Origin: a virus
Direction: 5' to 3' (one strand)
DNA length: 6,155 nt
IMG/VR virus record: IMGVR_UViG_3300000330_000030
Span: 1-6,155 of that record
The position numbers and the translations under genes are program-made. Of this stretch, positions 1,953 through 6,155 are shown piece after piece. Position 1 is the stretch's first letter. Every line of letters starts with the position of its first letter. The notes beneath the pieces are model-generated. The model had not been told where the DNA came from and did not search any database. It was given only the letters and a program-made list of their open reading frames with translations.

Positions 1953-3767
1953 TTAGACCATACGGTTAAATATATCATTTGCATCATTCAATTTTTTATG
2001 CTTAATCATATTCCGACAGACGGTAGAAGCACGGAAATAAAGACATTTTTGTAAGTCGTCGAGCGACCCATTATCAAAGGCACTTCTTGTATCGGGTTTC
2101 GCAGATTTGAAGTAATTACAAGTCGCGAGAGATGGGATTCTGGGGTCATCAAACGGTACTCGTATTTGTTCTTTAATAGGACGAATAAATCCGTCTGCAT
2201 ATTCTCCGTCTTCACCGATACCAATGGTCGCCATCTCGCATCCTTCGGCTGGTACATAGAAATACCGAAACATAGGGGCAGGCAAAGTCTGTTGTATTCG
2301 CAACGAATCACACATTCGTACATAGTCCGCTTTCTTTTCATACTCTATGCCTTTTTTAATGATATAATTAATACGGGAGGTATAAATATACAAATCGTCG
2401 CCAATGCCAGGGAGATTCCAATTGCGGAGGAACTTAGAGACATAAAGGAATAGCCGATATAACTTATTAATAAAATATTCAACATCGACATCGCTAGAAC
2501 TGTTAACGAACCTAGTAAGGCACCTAGCATTATGTAGTACAATCTTATCATCATCAGTCAATATATGATTTAAAGTTATATATTTATAATAAGCACGCAC
2601 TATAGATAGAATAGAATTACTATCATAATCTACAATGCCGAAACGTGCGATTCTTTTTGGCGCTGATGCAACTGAGCAAATAACTCTATATATCGCAACA
2701 GCATCATCATAGCGAGCTCCTGAGAATCTGGGGAATAAGGAACGGATATACGATATGGGGGGAGTTGACTTGACAACGATTCCATTAAAATTATACTCTC
2801 GTCCATTAATGACCGAATCGATTTTTTGCTCAATTTGCGCATAGACATCTTCACCTTCATCAAATGTTTCACCTTTTTCAAAGAATCCGAGAGACGCTCT
2901 TGAGCGGGGTTTAAACGCACGGCATGAGCGATAAAGAGAGGGAGCAGAAGCCAAGCTGTTAACGTAACTCGCAACGTATGAAGCGCATCCACCGTTGGAA
3001 CGTTGGATATCTGAACGACCGAACTTCCAACTTTTATTATGACACTCTCGAAGGACATCGGCGATTTCCTGCGAGTTGAAGAATAGTAACAAATGGAAAT
3101 GTGGGCGGAAATGGACTGGGCCATACTCGCCAACAGCGTAAAATGATATCTTTTCATTAGTGTATTTATCTAAATGTCTACGTAAACGTTTAATATAATT
3201 CTGAACATCAACATAGTTCAGATAAGGGATAAGATTATTACCGTATCTACAGGAAAGTTCTCCATCTTTACCGTAAGGTGTAGCGGATTGCGTCTTATCA
3301 ATAAAGGAACGGATAGCATCCATAGAAAGAAACCAATTATCTTTAATCGGCTCATACTGACCTGATTCACGGTTATATGGAACTGTACCCTGTACCTGTG
3401 TAAAGTATATATGGCGCAATTGTTGTGAGTCTGTACAACAATATTTGGATATCGGAACAAACGAATGTTTTTCATAACCATAAACAACACCAGAATCGCT
3501 TAAAACATCATCATATTCAGAATAATATACCTCACAATTAAATAGAGGAATGTGTTCATTATCGTAGGTGAGCGTAACAAACCAACAATGCTTAAAGGCA
3601 CTTCCAGCGGTCTTCACACGCATGGACGCCTTTTGAGCTCGCTTGTGTATACAATAATCGCATTGACCGCAATCTATAGCGATACGCTTACCTGTATATC
3701 TGTTAGTAACGAACGAACGATGTTGACAATGGTCAGCAGCTTTAAGCAACTCTGGTGTATATTTCAT
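1953..3767 (-). CDS. VP4: Replication initiation protein (VP4 / A-like HUH rolling-circle endonuclease) with a long C-terminal extension
   Basis: 604-aa ORF. It has an N-terminal Cys cluster, CGQCDYCIHKR. RCR motif I is FVTLTY (3564-3581). The HUH motif is RPHFHLLLFF (HFHLLL at 3084-3101). The two-tyrosine motif is YVASYVNS (2955-2978), comparable to the YxxxY catalytic motif of phiX174 protein A. I verified each by back-translation. Its ATG overlaps the peptidase stop (ATGA at 3764-3767). Confidence 0.92.
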   Translation of the reverse strand: MKYTPELLKAADHCQHRSFVTNRYTGKRIAIDCGQCDYCIHKRAQKASMRVKTAGSAFKHCWFVTLTYDNEHIPLFNCEVYYSEYDDVLSDSGVVYGYEKHSFVPISKYCCTDSQQLRHIYFTQVQGTVPYNRESGQYEPIKDNWFLSMDAIRSFIDKTQSATPYGKDGELSCRYGNNLIPYLNYVDVQNYIKRLRRHLDKYTNEKISFYAVGEYGPVHFRPHFHLLLFFNSQEIADVLRECHNKSWKFGRSDIQRSNGGCASYVASYVNSLASAPSLYRSCRAFKPRSRASLGFFEKGETFDEGEDVYAQIEQKIDSVINGREYNFNGIVVKSTPPISYIRSLFPRFSGARYDDAVAIYRVICSVASAPKRIARFGIVDYDSNSILSIVRAYYKYITLNHILTDDDKIVLHNARCLTRFVNSSSDVDVEYFINKLYRLFLYVSKFLRNWNLPGIGDDLYIYTSRINYIIKKGIEYEKKADYVRMCDSLRIQQTLPAPMFRYFYVPAEGCEMATIGIGEDGEYADGFIRPIKEQIRVPFDDPRIPSLATCNYFKSAKPDTRSAFDNGSLDDLQKCLYFRASTVCRNMIKHKKLNDANDIFNRMV

Positions 3768-4060
3768 ACTCTTTTATCAATTAATTGATGACGATTTCTT
3801 GAACTAAAGGATATATGCATGAATCCATCATAAAGAATAAACTGGTCAAATGCAACATTATCCATAATATAAGTTACCAACTGGCTATAAGTTGTAGAAC
3901 CATAAGGCTTGAAGTCAATAGCTTCGCCTTTAAGATGCTGAGAATTAGGAGCTCCTCCAGCAGTTCTATTCTGAAAAACAGTCCGAAGCGCGCTCGTTAT
4001 TGTAAAATGGAAGTTAAGCTGTAGCAAATCATCCAAAAAAGACATAAGGGCAGGATTCAT
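3764..4060 (-). CDS. Zinc D-Ala-D-Ala carboxypeptidase-like peptidase (Peptidase_M15 / LAS-type cell-wall hydrolase); candidate endolysin or entry enzyme
   Basis: 98-aa ORF. SALRTVFQNRTAGGAPNSQHLKGEAIDFKP ... GFMHISF matches the M15 signature SxxR...N...GG...SxHxxGxAxD ... H. The predicted zinc ligands are H42 (3935-3937), D49 (3914-3916) and H82 (3815-3817), giving H-x6-D...H. There are ATGA overlaps at both ends (4057-4060 and 3764-3767). Confidence 0.85.
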   Translation of the reverse strand: MNPALMSFLDDLLQLNFHFTITSALRTVFQNRTAGGAPNSQHLKGEAIDFKPYGSTTYSQLVTYIMDNVAFDQFILYDGFMHISFSSRNRHQLIDKRV

Positions 4061-4143
4061 AGACCTATAGCATTAAGTATATAACCAAGAGCTGCACTAA
4101 CAGCTCCAATAATAATCTTCCAAATATTATTTTTAGTTGCCAT
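4057..4143 (-). CDS. 28-aa single-pass membrane peptide (MATKNNIWKIIIGAVSAALGYILNAIGL), translationally coupled to the peptidase; holin/spanin-like candidate
   Basis: ATG at 4143..4141, and the TGA stop overlaps the peptidase ATG (ATGA). It has a 22-residue hydrophobic stretch after a short polar N-terminus. 18 of 28 third codon positions are T (64%), matching the coding bias of this genome. This indicates the frame is the translated one in this segment. Confidence 0.55.
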   Translation of the reverse strand: MATKNNIWKIIIGAVSAALGYILNAIGL

Positions 4144-4330
4144 TTTGAGTTGTTTTAACAGGTTCGACGAATTGATTCTCTTCTTTAATAGAATCCACAA
4201 TAACAACAAGACCCAACGGAGAAATTCGCTCAGAATAATTTCCAAGGCCATCCAAAGAATTGACAATATAAGGCGCAATAACATCACGACCTGAATTTTT
4301 CTCCTTAATTGAAATAATAAATTTTTGCAT
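4133..4330 (-). CDS. Hypothetical 65-aa protein, first gene after the non-coding region
   Basis: ATG-initiated ORF MQKFIISIKEKNSGRDVIAPYIVNSLDGLGNYSERISPLGLVVIVDSIKEENQFVEPVKTTQNGN. 35 of 65 third positions are T (54%). The overlapping 93-aa frame scores about 19% T over the same stretch, so this is the primary coding frame. I recognise no motif. Confidence 0.7.
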   Translation of the reverse strand: MQKFIISIKEKNSGRDVIAPYIVNSLDGLGNYSERISPLGLVVIVDSIKEENQFVEPVKTTQNGN

Positions 4331-4477
4331 AATTCCAAATTTTAAACGTTAATAATACTGAGTTAGCTTCTACAGGGGACAAAGAAAAACATTATTTTTT
4401 ATATATGCAAAATTCTACGGATATTTTTTTAGGCATGGCCTTGTGTGAGTTCAACGTTTATAGACAAGGAAAGAGAG

Positions 4478-4500
4478 AAACTGAGAGGGTAACTCAGTTT
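4478..4500. other. Perfect 8-bp stem with 7-nt loop hairpin (AAACTGAG-AGGGTAA-CTCAGTTT)
   Basis: Seen directly: 4478-4485 is the exact reverse complement of 4493-4500. It is nested inside a 7-bp outer pairing, AGTTCAA (4448-4454) with TTGAACT (4511-4517). It is immediately followed by the mini-palindrome TGCGTTCGCA (4501-4510). Confidence 0.7.
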
Positions 4501-4521
4501 TGCGTTCGCATTGAACTAGGG

Positions 4522-4639
4522 GCTTCGCATGATTAAAAGTGGATGTAAACAAAGTGTATAGGCACGACAAGCCAATTAGTCTTGTCTTTGCGCACCGACG
4601 TGCTAAAGTACCGCTTCGCTTTAAGGTAGGTCGCTTCGC
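4522..4639 (-). repeat. Three copies of the heptamer GCGAAGC on the coding/packaged-sense strand (plus-strand GCTTCGC at 4522-4528, 4613-4619, 4633-4639)
   Basis: Exact matches read from the sequence. The last two sit in a repeated 9-mer, CGCTTCGCT (4612-4620 and 4632-4640), 20 nt apart. d(GCGAAGC) is known as an unusually stable DNA mini-hairpin. Confidence 0.85.
4541..4576. repeat. Bipartite direct repeat, copy 1 (GGATGTAAACAA - 10 nt - CACGACAAGCCAAT)
   Basis: The 12-mer at 4541-4552 is identical to 4716-4727. The second module at 4563-4576 matches 4743-4757 apart from one extra G in copy 2, and they share the exact 9-mer CAAGCCAAT. GACAAG (4566-4571) also pairs with CTTGTC (4581-4586) to form a 6-bp hairpin. 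Confidence 0.8.
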
Positions 4640-4715
4640 TCCATTTTTCGACCAGGCCCTACGCGGGCAGCGGGTGTATATCGCTCAAGCGCCGCGATGG
4701 GCTTTTAGTCCTGAA

Positions 4716-4757
4716 GGATGTAAACAAGAAAGGCCTACTCATCACGAGCAAGCCAAT
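4716..4757. repeat. Bipartite direct repeat, copy 2 (GGATGTAAACAA - 15 nt - CACGAGCAAGCCAAT)
   Basis: See copy 1. The 12-mers are exactly 175 nt apart, and together the two copies bracket the G+C-rich core. Confidence 0.8.
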
Positions 4758-4806
4758 CAAGAATAAACTAATAGACACAGAAGATAAAAAAACTACTTAC
4801 TATATA

Positions 4807-5865
4807 CTATTCAAATGTACCAATAAAATTGCCAGCACCAGAGGCTATAGAACTAAGGCCACGAGAAGCAGATTCCCAATAATGGGTACGACCTTTTTTC
4901 CGAGACAAGTCTGCACCATATTCATATAGCCTTTGCTTAGCCTTATCGGTATCATACTGAATATGCTTACGTAATTTAACATTAGCAGAATCATAAGATG
5001 CATCACGATACTGCAACTGATAAGCAGCATTCGAAGCCTTAATCAAAGATTCAGCAGTGCTTGAAGCAATATCATTAGATATCTTTTGACCAGAAGCCTG
5101 AGCAGCCGTTAATATAGCACGTTGGAGTTCAGTCTGAATCTGCTTTTCCGTAAGAGCACCATTTAACTGAAGATTAGCCAAAGTCTGACCTTTAATAAAT
5201 AAGTCGGCTTGTTGTTGTTCATCAAGATAACGGTTTAAAATACGTTGAGCATCAGAGTTCAAAAGAATCTGAGTTTCTTGAGCAGCAGACAATCGTTCAG
5301 CGAACTGAAGATTCTTTAATTCCTGAGCCTCTGTAGATTGGTCTAAGGAGGCAGAGATACGACCAGTTTCCTTATTCCAATAGCCAGACTGACCAACAGC
5401 CAGATTTTTCCAATTAGTCAAACCTTTATAATAATCAGCAATTTGAGGAGTAATAGAATCAATATAATTAGATTCTGACTGAGCCTTTTTCGCTTGGGCA
5501 AGAGAAGCTAAAGAATTAAAGACATTGGAAAAATTGGGCTTAAAAGCCTGCATAGACGGAACAGGAGCGGCAGTAGCAGCAGCACCACCAGAGGCAGGAG
5601 CTTTAGAACCAGCCATAGCGGCAGAACCTTGAATAAACGGATTCAAACCACGAGCAATCATAGCATTCGGAGAATTGTAAGCATTATTCATACCCCACAT
5701 TCTCTCTTGCCAATCACGCTGAAGCTGAGATTGCTCGGCATTGAACGCGTTTTGTTCTCGCATCACACGGAGGTTAACCTTATTCTGATGATTTTGGTTA
5801 ACCATGCCTACCACATTGTCGGTAAGATTACCGACAGTGGAAGCAATCGCATCGAAGAGACCCAT
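4807..5865 (-). CDS. VP2: Minor capsid / DNA pilot protein (VP2, H-like)
   Basis: 352-aa ORF whose ATG overlaps the upstream stop (TAATG at 5863-5867). The N-terminal LQRDWQERMWGMNNAYNSPNAMIARGLNPF resembles the ...ERM..N.A.....M...GLNP signature I associate with gokusho/alpavirus VP2. It is followed by an Ala/Gly/Pro linker (GGAAATAAPVP) and a long Q/L/A-rich helical-looking region, as in H-type pilot proteins. Size and synteny fit. Confidence 0.75.
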   Translation of the reverse strand: MGLFDAIASTVGNLTDNVVGMVNQNHQNKVNLRVMREQNAFNAEQSQLQRDWQERMWGMNNAYNSPNAMIARGLNPFIQGSAAMAGSKAPASGGAAATAAPVPSMQAFKPNFSNVFNSLASLAQAKKAQSESNYIDSITPQIADYYKGLTNWKNLAVGQSGYWNKETGRISASLDQSTEAQELKNLQFAERLSAAQETQILLNSDAQRILNRYLDEQQQADLFIKGQTLANLQLNGALTEKQIQTELQRAILTAAQASGQKISNDIASSTAESLIKASNAAYQLQYRDASYDSANVKLRKHIQYDTDKAKQRLYEYGADLSRKKGRTHYWESASRGLSSIASGAGNFIGTFE

Positions 5866-6155
5866 TAAACGTTAGGTGCAGGGGCGGACGCATCAGGAGC
5901 GGGCGCTGCACTTTGCTCTGCCAACACAGACTTAGCGAACTCAGTCAATTCCGAATGTTGAGAAGCCAATTCAGATAATACAGCCTGACGTTCAGACATT
6001 GTTTGACAATGACGGGAAATAACAGCATTAAAACGCTCTTCATCCGTCATACCATCCATCACAGTAGACTGCGTAGGATGCATCTGAGCCAATATATTAT
6101 TAACATTCATATCACCAAGCAAGCGACGATATTTTTCCTGATTCAAGAGAATCTG
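5865..6155 (-). CDS. C-terminal part of the junction-spanning 147-aa protein (same gene as 1..207). The ORF-track TTG start at 6146 is an edge artefact.
   Basis: The frame is open to the window edge (…QILLNQEKYRRLL…). 6102-6155 duplicates 1-54, so the ORF continues upstream to ATG 207..205. The C-terminus is helical-looking and ends in an Ala/Pro tail (AAPAPDASAPAPNV). The stop overlaps the VP2 ATG. Confidence 0.8.
   Translation of the reverse strand, partial: QILLNQEKYRRLLGDMNVNNILAQMHPTQSTVMDGMTDEERFNAVISRHCQTMSERQAVLSELASQHSELTEFAKSVLAEQSAAPAPDASAPAPNV
6102..6155. repeat. Terminal direct repeat, copy 2 (identical to 1-54)
   Basis: Exact 54/54 identity with the window start. Confidence 0.95.

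Follow-up and report, generated by a model that had tools for sequence, protein, structure and literature searches.

Conversion of the packaged single strand to duplex DNA is the first step of every microvirus infection. To our knowledge this step has been mapped only for the Escherichia coli phages phiX174, G4 and their kin, and we know of neither origin for the Bacteroidota gut microviruses. In the G4 record the primer region reads ATGGACGGCGAAAGCCGCCGTCCCTACT, complementary-strand synthesis begins at the G of CTG, and the hairpin GGACGGC-GAAA-GCCGCCGTCC is followed by CTACTG. The DNA analysed here, referred to as the window, is the whole 6,155-nucleotide (nt) stretch of IMG/VR virus record IMGVR_UViG_3300000330_000030, a circular microvirus genome of 6101 nt in which bases 6102-6155 duplicate bases 1-54 (a terminal assembly overlap of 54 bases). 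Downstream of its pilot-protein gene lies a gene-free gap (4339-4806) holding a conserved, structured element of about 275 nt (4716-4443, minus strand) which, as judged by sequence comparison, may well be a complementary-strand origin folded in the packaged single-stranded DNA.

C-GNA-G mini-hairpins, described by Hirao and colleagues, show exceptional stability as DNA and little affinity for single-strand-binding protein, and are weak as RNA, r(GCGAAAGC) melting at 39 C (PMC13037366). They are found at the priming sites of G4 (GCGAAAGC), of St-1 and alpha3 (GCGTTAGC) and of RSF1010 ssiA (CCGAAGG), and the N4 hairpin promoters carry the mini-hairpin GCGGAGC (PMC13037366). Reekeekee- and roodoodoo-microviruses have intergenic hairpins with compensatory substitutions that have been proposed, without proof, to start negative-strand synthesis (PMC9865509). 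Bacteroides fragilis phage phiHBP1 has been reported as the first cultured Bacteroidota microvirus; the intergenic region of its genome that holds the core of the element is not discussed in that paper (PMC13064476), and no description of the element was found in the literature.

Conservation and base pairing of the element

The gap was read as the reverse complement of the window because all genes lie on the minus strand (as given by the list of open reading frames, ORFs) and the packaged strand of Microviridae is the coding strand; helix and motif sequences are all given on this strand. Close relatives of the window, 70-80% identical to it, come from faeces, saliva and the vagina and are recorded as 'Dulem virus' or 'Microviridae sp.' genomes. 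The gap is kept in 34 GenBank phage records, a 28-nt pattern from the core of the element matched 102 IMG/VR contigs, nearly all of them microviruses of about 6 kb, and two more patterns contributed about 25 additional relatives; the element is carried by more than 130 related microvirus genomes. Two alignments were used, A1 with 108 distinct copies of the element and A2 with 127 distinct copies of its 3' core. The conserved block in A1 runs from ACTARRAGCCCATC to CAACTCACAC, corresponding to 4716-4443 of the window, and comprises a 5' domain and a 3' core (Table 1). In a whole-genome alignment of 46 genomes the mean column identity was 0.90 for the 5' domain and 0.895 for the 3' domain, compared with 0.71-0.87 for the genes, and the element is the most conserved part of the genome. 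In a whole-genome scan, several 20-nt windows within Rep and VP1 matched its conservation.

The gap had been described from the sequence alone as non-coding DNA in an otherwise tightly packed genome, and both halves of that description hold. Long ORFs on the minus strand abut or overlap elsewhere (1953-3767 with 3764-4060, 3764-4060 with 4057-4338, and 4807-5865 with 5865-6146), and the gap contains only short ORFs of 39-75 amino acids (aa). Within the element no conserved frame, three-nucleotide periodicity or preference for triplet indels was seen that would indicate a protein-coding gene: variability by codon phase was flat (0.075, 0.091 and 0.088), 47 of the 58 polymorphic indels were not multiples of three, and no frame was open across the element in 103 of 108 copies. 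Searches of Pfam and PHROGs with the two plus-strand ORFs of the gap gave no credible match. Database records differ in the 'hypothetical protein' genes that they place over the element, with a 108-aa ORF in Dulem virus 242 (L005, 789-1115) and, in phiHBP1 (L287, PV598014), a coding sequence at 2326-2736 that overlies the structured element and terminator. Because the frames are not conserved in relatives, such genes annotated over the element or terminator are probably false calls.

No known family was recognised either. A scan with the covariance models of Rfam 15, at E values up to 10, gave nothing within 4443-4716; one match at chance level (E 4.4) touched only the edge of the gap (4339-4351). 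ARAGORN found no tRNA or tmRNA, and a plasmid search returned no sequence similar to the element. A 16-base pattern matched at least 120 bacterial stretches; nhmmer showed that none of the 120 listed is a real copy, the matches being chance 16-mers to a pattern that was too short, and the result does not show that bacterial genomes lack the element.

The five pairings proposed in the sequence-only reading are all exact in the window: 4478-4485 with 4493-4500 (8 base pairs, bp), 4448-4454 (AGTTCAA) with 4511-4517 (TTGAACT), 4566-4571 with 4581-4586, GCAC/GTGC at 4592-4603, and ATCGC/GCGAT at 4680-4698. They correspond to the helices named Hj, Hh, He, Hd and Ha, respectively, and each covaries across the 108-127 related genomes. 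Exchanges seen among the relatives include ATCGC/GCGAT, ATCAC/GTGAT and ATCC/GGAT; GCAC/GTGC and GCGC/GCGC; GGCAAG/CTTGCC, GGCAGG/CCTGCC and GGCAGA/TCTGCC; GTTGTGT/GCACAAC, GTTCAAT/GTTGAAC and GTTGCGT/GCGCAAC; and TTCGAG/CTCGAA, TCCGAG/CTCGGA, TTTGAG/CTCAAA and ACTGAG/CTCAGT. A model of 53 pairs was curated by hand from RNAalifold output and an all-against-all list of covarying columns, and was changed where double changes backed local helices. In A1, 96.5% of 5689 cells were paired under this model, compared with 24-46% when the 3' partners were slid by 1-3 columns; two-sided changes were present in 21 pairs (273 cells), and none of 500 shuffles reached the observed values. For the 3' core alone (A2), 99.2% of cells were paired, 12 of the 19 pairs showed double changes in a total of 207 cells, and there were 3 wobble cells. 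When distant relatives were added to the core alignment, 98.8% of cells were paired and 16 of the 19 pairs were double-changed, in an alignment that was fitted to the model and so leans towards structure. Base pairing in the element is kept by compensatory change.

Folding energy gave a different answer. With dinucleotide shuffles as controls, RNA and DNA parameters, and both strands, the coding strand of the whole gap had z scores of -1.12 with RNA and -1.19 with DNA parameters, its other strand scored -0.41 with DNA parameters, and the values for the separate domains ranged from +0.22 to -1.98, so that the region cannot be told from shuffled sequence by this measure. The region is accepted as real because the comparative evidence succeeds where the thermodynamic criterion fails: its helices pair through many two-sided changes in related genomes and its conservation is the highest in the genome. 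The region is structured, as had been suspected, and under strong selection. The G+C contents that had drawn attention to the island were confirmed (60.0% at 4591-4700, against 41.0% for the whole gap and 40.2% for the remaining genome). The description of the island as compositionally foreign was not, since the G+C-rich part is vertically conserved in the clade, has no plasmid match and has no real match among the 120 bacterial stretches listed; its high G+C content simply reflects stem positions.

Two points of the model concern the 5' domain. RNAalifold had placed long-range helices on trimmed A1 (columns 15-18 with 58-61, and GGAGCGG with CCGCTCC). These were replaced by the local helices Ha, Hb and Hc because pairs 22:34, 52:58 and 98:110 covary and because genomes of the window type and of the L009 type cannot form the long helix. 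Columns 81 and 105 of trimmed A1 (GGAGCG[G/A]AGCGAC with TT[C/T]CGCTCC) are nevertheless correlated, GC in 96 copies and AT in 7, in a manner that the local model leaves unexplained; the long helix GGAGCGG/CCGCTCC could compete with Hc and the first mini-hairpin, as a conformational switch in the majority type. Counts of G-T against A-C over the element (222 against 97) were not relied on, as a single invariant pair supplies about half of the G-T cells and misaligned copies of He supply some of the remainder.

The two domains are not inherited together in every genome. Searches by nhmmer with separate domain profiles showed that the 5' domain is missing from four relatives (L247, L257, L263 and L271), in which only the last ~95 nt are kept; a canonical terminator stands in its place, directly before the core, in L247, L257 and L271, and a different sequence in L263. 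A fifth genome, L242, retains a mere fragment of the 5' domain. The 3' core was found in every relative, including those without the 5' domain. Covariance model R1, which describes the core, also matched more distant genomes on the coding strand in the gap that follows the pilot gene, namely Dulem virus 236 (E 7e-8), phiHBP1 (E 2e-6), Dulem virus 256 (E 6e-5) and MT135333 (E 2e-4), with two weaker candidates at the same intergenic position in other genomes. The unpaired motifs of the core drift in these distant relatives.

A putative complementary-strand origin and its rivals

The reading that we favour, and hold with about even confidence, is that the element serves as a complementary-strand origin; we infer priming as its function and, with it, the kind of enzyme that acts there. 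After injection the genome would be coated by the host single-strand-binding protein, and the C-GNA-G mini-hairpins in particular, along with the G+C-rich hairpins and the three-way junction, would remain folded and free of protein. The folded parts would expose a short invariant single strand, CCCTAG just 3' of GCGAAGC together with CTTGTCYATAAAC in the junction, and a host priming enzyme would begin the first complementary strand at this exposed stretch. DnaG primase, as at the G4 origin, is a first guess for the enzyme, and RNA polymerase, as at M13 and ssoA, an alternative. The 93-nt 3' core is proposed to be the essential part, indispensable for this role, and the 5' domain an accessory, exchangeable module.

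Two properties known from G4-type origins are present. The element lies in a non-coding gap on the packaged strand, all genes being on the minus strand and the element folding on the minus strand. It has stable hairpins with a GCGNAGC or GCGNNAGC mini-hairpin at the presumed start site, as seen both in covariation and in strand-biased counts. Directly 3' of the core mini-hairpin is the near-invariant CCCTAGTTG; E. coli primase starts at CTG, and the preference of Bacteroides DnaG may differ. The modularity of the 5' domain, which is lost in some genomes, also fits a single-strand origin, since the single-strand origins of rolling-circle plasmids are dispensable, exchangeable cassettes. The absence of any Rfam or tRNA match and of a coding signal was counted as further support.

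The mini-hairpins are concentrated on one strand. Across 111 genomes the element has 346 copies of the 7-mer X-C-G-N-A-G-X' on its coding strand and 5 on its other strand, giving densities of 10.8 and 0.16 per kb, respectively, against about 0.6 per kb on either strand elsewhere. Three of the four GCGNAGC copies in the genome of the window lie in the element, and none on the other strand (shuffle probability 0.0008). Across relatives Hi is a stem of 2-3 bp closed by C-G, with a loop of GAA, GGA or GAAA; the closing pair is invariant and the next pair covaries freely (GC 74, CG 40, AT 11).

Position relative to the operon was examined with a terminator scan. In the window the pilot-gene stop is separated from the element by an intrinsic terminator of 10 pairs, 5 of them G-C, with a loop of 3 nt and the tail TTTCTTGTTT. 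The whole element is thus downstream of termination, and Ha, Hb and the mini-hairpins are equally conserved there. In most relatives the element begins a few nt past the pilot-gene stop, Hc takes the form GGAGCG-TTC-CGCTCC followed by GGTATTTTAG, and the hairpin scores as a terminator in 110 genomes; in these relatives Hc with GGTATTTT probably doubles as the operon terminator. No separate terminator is present in 108 of the 115 genomes with a strong Hc. Those with a weak Hc have a spacer of 70-230 nt, and their Hc is either a mini-hairpin (the window, L001, L014, L016, L070 and L272) or GGAC-GTTA-GTCC (L009-L011); the scan finds a terminator in the spacer in five of the six mini-hairpin genomes, and the one in L009-L011 was recognised by eye only. 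Because terminator arrangements swap while the element persists, conservation of Ha, Hb and the mini-hairpins does not depend on their being open to transcription. In every genome examined the core is preceded by a terminator or by Hc and followed by the promoter.

Pairing chemistry adds a third line of evidence. G-T is a poor pair in DNA, and G-U is usually tolerated in RNA. Wobble was scarce at the covarying core positions, with 3 wobble cells against 207 double changes, figures that carry no calibration against RNA families. From the position outside the operon, the mini-hairpin loops and the near absence of wobble, we infer that the functional molecule is DNA rather than RNA.

Other observations weigh against a complementary-strand origin. 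The element has no homology to the G4 origin (R1 gave no match in the G4 genome at E values up to 10), the likeness to G4 is short and was spotted by eye, and folding energy is no better than that of shuffled sequence. The messenger RNA and the packaged strand have the same sequence, so that neither covariation nor strand bias is enough to tell an RNA from a DNA function, and, as the element starts a few nt past the pilot stop in most relatives, at least its first 110 nt are probably transcribed there as a 3' untranslated region (UTR). The pair that closes Hh in the main clade is an invariant T-G, which is more usual in RNA; it is C-G in three distant relatives. Lastly, the viral-strand origin of these phages could be the same element.

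This last point leads to an alternative that we regard as possible and rather unlikely, in which the 3' core is the Rep binding and nick site for viral-strand rolling-circle synthesis, the nick falling in an invariant unpaired stretch such as CTTG/TCYATAAAC or TAAT.A and being presented by the hairpins. Such an origin in the core could also coexist with a complementary-strand origin in the 5' domain. The presence of the core in every relative, even where the 5' domain is lost, would suit this role, and the invariance of its unpaired segments suggests sequence-specific recognition, although these same motifs drift in distant relatives. CTTG/ATA is the nick-site motif of phiX174 and pC194-type replicons, and the CTTG of the core recalls it; a conserved CTTGATA is found nowhere else in these genomes. 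Rep acts on the strand that bears the mini-hairpins, and in phiX174 (L274, 4280-4340) a C-G-closed GAA hairpin, CCCC-GAA-GGGG, stands immediately 3' of the origin. However, plus origins are usually short, with at most one hairpin, and a multi-helix element of 93-275 nt is more like a single-strand origin. Windows of 20 nt in the Rep gene are equally conserved and could hide the origin, as in phiX174; since several Rep and VP1 20-mers rival the element, the conservation scan cannot place the viral-strand origin.

Searches for known nick regions gave resemblances only. The 30-nt phiX174 origin CAACTTGATATTAATAACACTATAGACCAC was not found in these genomes, nor was a conserved CTTGATA; there was a loose likeness in TAACTCAGTATTATTAAC (13 of 19 positions) and CTTGTC. 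A box in the 5' UTR, TTATTAAC, matches the phiX174 origin at 13 of 19 positions, and the 5' UTR motif TAACTCAGTATTATTAACG is loosely similar to CAACTTGATATTAATAACA of that origin; the motif is absent from phiHBP1. A likeness to the Rep-binding region of f1 (CTCTTGTTCCAAAC...AACAACACTCAAC), noticed by eye, was rejected, as the best local alignment lies elsewhere (P = 0.08). The gap may thus house the viral-strand origin as well, with the unpaired CTTG/TCYATAAAC of the core and the TTATTAAC box as candidates; TAACTCAGTATTATTAACG is a candidate Rep nick region or simply translation-initiation context.

A structured RNA is an equally doubtful alternative: the transcribed element could fold within the 3' UTR of the long operon and affect stability, processing or control of termination, or it could be a non-coding RNA in its own right. 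The coding-strand covariation fits an RNA equally well, and a size of 275 nt with about ten helices is that of a complex RNA. The element directly abuts the pilot stop without a prior terminator in 108 of 115 strong-Hc relatives, its 5' half being very likely transcribed, and both the invariant T-G (U-G) pair and the minority GAAA loops, a classic RNA tetraloop, have an RNA flavour. Against this, a canonical terminator precedes a fully conserved element in the window, in L001, L014 and L016, in the L009-L011 group and in phiHBP1; the universal core is located between terminator or Hc and promoter in every genome examined; and no promoter of its own was seen. C-GNA-G helices of 2-3 bp are unstable as RNA (PMC13037366). 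Wobble is nearly absent at the covarying sites, and Rfam gave no match in the element up to E 10. Somewhat less probable again is that the element is no replication signal at all and encodes a large structured non-coding RNA of a new class in gut microviruses of Bacteroidota. Such an RNA would arise by read-through or from a promoter that escaped recognition, and would be a ribozyme or would target the host, for instance its defence systems; no complex structured RNA is known from Microviridae so far. The sequence-only reading had offered a complementary-strand origin, a packaging or Rep recognition region and a structured RNA as candidate functions; the evidence now favours the first, which as a function is deduced rather than observed, and a viral-strand origin and a structured RNA stay as its rivals.

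It is improbable that the hairpins act only at a transcription boundary, as terminator, insulator or upstream promoter element of the single operon. In favour of it, Hc with its GGTATTTT has a terminator score in 110 relatives, Hc is strong where a separate terminator is lacking and weak where one is present, and the element is directly upstream of the promoter; but one hairpin suffices for a terminator where the element has ten, genomes with a canonical terminator still keep the whole element, and termination explains neither the invariant unpaired sequence nor the covarying three-way junction. Least probable, and only barely credible, is an integration site in which the folded strand forms a dif-like XerC/XerD site, as in CTX phage and as proposed for Bacteroidetes microvirus prophages: related microvirus proviruses are flanked by dif-like sites, some with a second one (PMC3091885), and we take their described gene order to suggest an attachment site at the same intergenic position, but the 28-nt pattern DBBBCSBATAATRTAYATTATGTHAANT is matched in the genome at no more than 12-13 of its 18 fixed positions, by weak and scattered sites of which none is in 4443-4716, the helices are of at most 8 bp and not a 28-bp site, and none of the 120 bacterial stretches listed matches the element.

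Features of the gap and neighbouring genes

The gap is a composite control region, for transcription and probably for replication, and not a single feature. Its 468 nt are non-coding and structured, as first described, and form no single island: on the minus strand the pilot stop is followed by the terminator and the ~275-nt element, and these by an A-tract, a promoter and the 5' UTR of the first gene (Table 1).

Table 1 Coordinates of genes, structural elements and control signals in the window
Feature	Position	Strand	Basis or remark
Major capsid protein	218-1936	minus	Pfam and PHROGs
HUH Rep	1953-3767	minus	Pfam and PHROGs
M15 peptidase	3764-4060	minus	Pfam and PHROGs
65-aa ORF, first gene 3' of the gap	4133-4330	minus	ORF list
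ATG of 65-aa ORF, downstream gap edge	4328-4330	minus	
5' UTR motif TAACTCAGTATTATTAACG	4347-4365	minus	TTATTAA(C) core nearly invariant, 25-29 nt before ATG
Bacteroidota-type promoter: -33 TTTG (4411-4408), 20-nt spacer, -7 TTTCTTTG (4387-4380)	4380-4411	minus	
A-tract	4424-4430	minus	Between element and promoter; conserved in relatives
Structured element, ~275 nt	4716-4443	minus	A1 conservation and pair counts
3' core domain, 93 nt	4443-4535	minus	A2 pair counts and covariance model R1
Tail CTCACAC	4449-4443	minus	3' core
Unpaired, largely invariant CTTGTCTATAAAC (also written CTYGTCYATAAAC)	4468-4456	minus	3' core
Hj, three-way junction	4500-4478	minus	3' core
Hi, GC-GAAC-GC, three-way junction	4509-4502	minus	3' core
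Hh, three-way junction	4517-4510 with 4455-4448	minus	3' core
Near-invariant CCCTAG	4521-4516	minus	3' core
Near-invariant mini-hairpin GCGAAGC	4528-4522	minus	3' core
AT-rich TAAT.A box	in 3' core	minus	
Direct repeat copy 2, exact 12 nt	4541-4552	minus	Linker between 5' and 3' domains
5' domain, G+C-rich, modular	4553-4716	minus	A1 pair counts
Invariant CCTATAC	within 4553-4716	minus	5' domain
He with 3-bp extension	4591-4562	minus	5' domain
Hd	4603-4592	minus	5' domain
Second GCGAAGC, in the position of variable hairpin Hc	4619-4613	minus	5' domain
Mini-hairpin GCGAAGC	4639-4633	minus	5' domain
Hb, GCCC-GCGTA-GGGC	4668-4656	minus	5' domain
Ha	4698-4680	minus	5' domain
Direct repeat copy 1, exact 12 nt, TTGTTTACATCC	4716-4727	minus	Flanks 5' domain
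Intrinsic terminator, hairpin GGCTTGCTC-GTGAT-GAGTAGGCC (4754-4732) and TTTCTTGTTT	4722-4754	minus	Terminator scan
Pilot-gene stop codon TAG, upstream gap edge	4807-4809	minus	
Pilot protein (VP2-like)	4807-5865	minus	Pfam and PHROGs
Scaffold-like ORF	from 5865 (ORF 5865-6146)	minus	

The Bacteroides sigma-A promoter consensus is TTTG at -33 and TAnnTTTG at -7, with some 19-21 nt between them. The -7 box of the window has one mismatch from TAnnTTTG, and the features of a Bacteroidota sigma-A promoter are otherwise present. Among 130 relatives the strict pattern TTTG-N17-23-TAnnTTTG was found in 84 (77 with N19) and T[AT]nnTTTG in all 130. A scan for sigma-70 promoters gave no excess over shuffles, with a model that is not relevant to this host. 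Between promoter and first gene, the TTATTAA core of the 5' UTR motif is present in 130 of 142 relatives. The order in phiHBP1 is terminator, G+C-rich region, core, A-tract, aTTG-N20-TATGTTTG and the Rep ATG; its G+C-rich region carries the mini-hairpins GCGGAAGC, GCGAAGC and ACGAAGT, and Hi of its core is a further GCGAAGC. The pilot gene itself ends with a perfect -7 box, TACATTTG (4812-4819, minus), which has TCTG 19 nt 5' of it and shortly precedes the terminator; chance alone would give about 1.5 boxes of this kind on each strand.

Variation was also seen at the borders of the two domains. On either side of the 5' domain stands a copy of the 12-nt direct repeat (plus strand, GGATGTAAACAA), which together with GATATACACC and CCTATACAC makes three to four copies of a TATACAYC-like motif; these could be iteron-like protein sites or the scar of an insertion or deletion of the 5' domain. 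The linker between the domains takes insertions (L012, L013, L041, L043, L045 and others; A1 columns 230-300), among them a hairpin of about 35 nt, CCTAGATCTATTAGTAATGGATCTAGG, in about 15 genomes, and TTTGTCAAGTCCAGGACTTACAC in three tandem copies in L065 (2362-2746). In Dulem virus 254 and 255 (L006 and L007) an insert of about 150 nt with a 50-aa ORF separates the pilot gene from the element.

Rep is a protein of 604 aa in which Rep profiles cover only residues ~21-271, with PF23343 at 184-270; its C-terminal ~330 aa gave no match in Pfam, NCBIfam or PDB sequences. No phage-encoded primase or other partner was recognisable in the 6.1-kb genome by Pfam, PHROGs, NCBIfam or PDB, the matches of Rep being confined to the HUH domain. 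Between the 65-aa ORF and the M15 peptidase sits a 28-aa ORF, MATKNNIWKIIIGAVSAALGYILNAIGL (4057-4143, minus), which has a hydrophobic core and a stop that overlaps the peptidase start (ATGA). Its nucleotide and peptide sequences are kept in relatives, and it is without annotation in the records examined; a role as a small membrane protein that works with the endolysin is conceivable.

Comparison with known origins

As a concrete and sharply bounded candidate origin, the element comes with a pair model drawn from more than 130 genomes, and the presence of its core in the cultured phage phiHBP1 makes the proposal testable. With a role in priming, the association of C-GNA-G mini-hairpins with priming sites would no longer be confined to coliphages and their plasmids, and covariance model R1 would mark the origin-proximal gap in metagenomic microvirus genomes. 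The analysis also flags several probably spurious 'hypothetical protein' annotations over the element.

The hairpins of the reekeekee- and roodoodoo-microviruses share the proposed role. They differ in being one or two simple hairpins in unrelated clades, whereas the element has about ten helices in two domains, is enriched in mini-hairpins and has more than 130 members, a cultured phage among them. The initiation signals of RSF1010 ssiA and ssiB and the hairpin promoters of N4 resemble it in another respect, as their initiation signals on single-stranded DNA are built around CCGAAGG or GCGGAGC (PMC13037366) and the same heptamers appear in m1, m2 and Hi of the element. Those systems rely on dedicated enzymes, the RepB' primase and the N4 virion RNA polymerase, whereas none is recognisable in this 6.1-kb genome.

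The plasmid origins ssoA, ssoT and ssoU and the minus origin of M13 and f1 are, like the element, structured, strand-specific and non-coding regions of 150-300 nt. They lie in an untranscribed gap near a promoter and the plus-origin region, and are modular and dispensable; the strand specificity of the element and the modularity of its 5' domain recall the sso cassettes. The order of the f1 gap (terminator, hairpins, origins, promoter) is also similar. In contrast to the element, the sso and M13 origins mimic a promoter for RNA polymerase, and no mimic of the Bacteroides -33/-7 promoter was seen in the stems of the element. The ssoA motifs CS-6 (TAGCGT/A) and RS-B were not found as such in the element, in an alignment checked only by eye; TAGCAC or TAGCGC occurs, by the same check, in the 5' arm of Hd and not in a terminal loop. 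The element also differs from the sso origins in having no sequence similarity to any plasmid.

The closest likeness is to the G4 origin, which lies between genes F and G and is represented also in St-1 and alpha3. Both are found in an intergenic microvirus gap, on the packaged strand, with several hairpins whose presumed role is to stay clear of single-strand-binding protein. In G4 a C-GAAA-G-capped hairpin (...GCGAAAGC...) is followed by CCCTACTG, and in the element GCGAAGC is followed by CCCTAGTTG. The G4 origin differs in having three tandem hairpins in 136 nt, where the element has a three-way junction and a modular 165-nt domain. There is no detectable homology between the two, and the hosts of the element are Bacteroidota, whose primase specificity may differ. 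The likeness to G4 is best taken as a lead to where priming might start, and not as evidence that the element belongs to the same class of origin.

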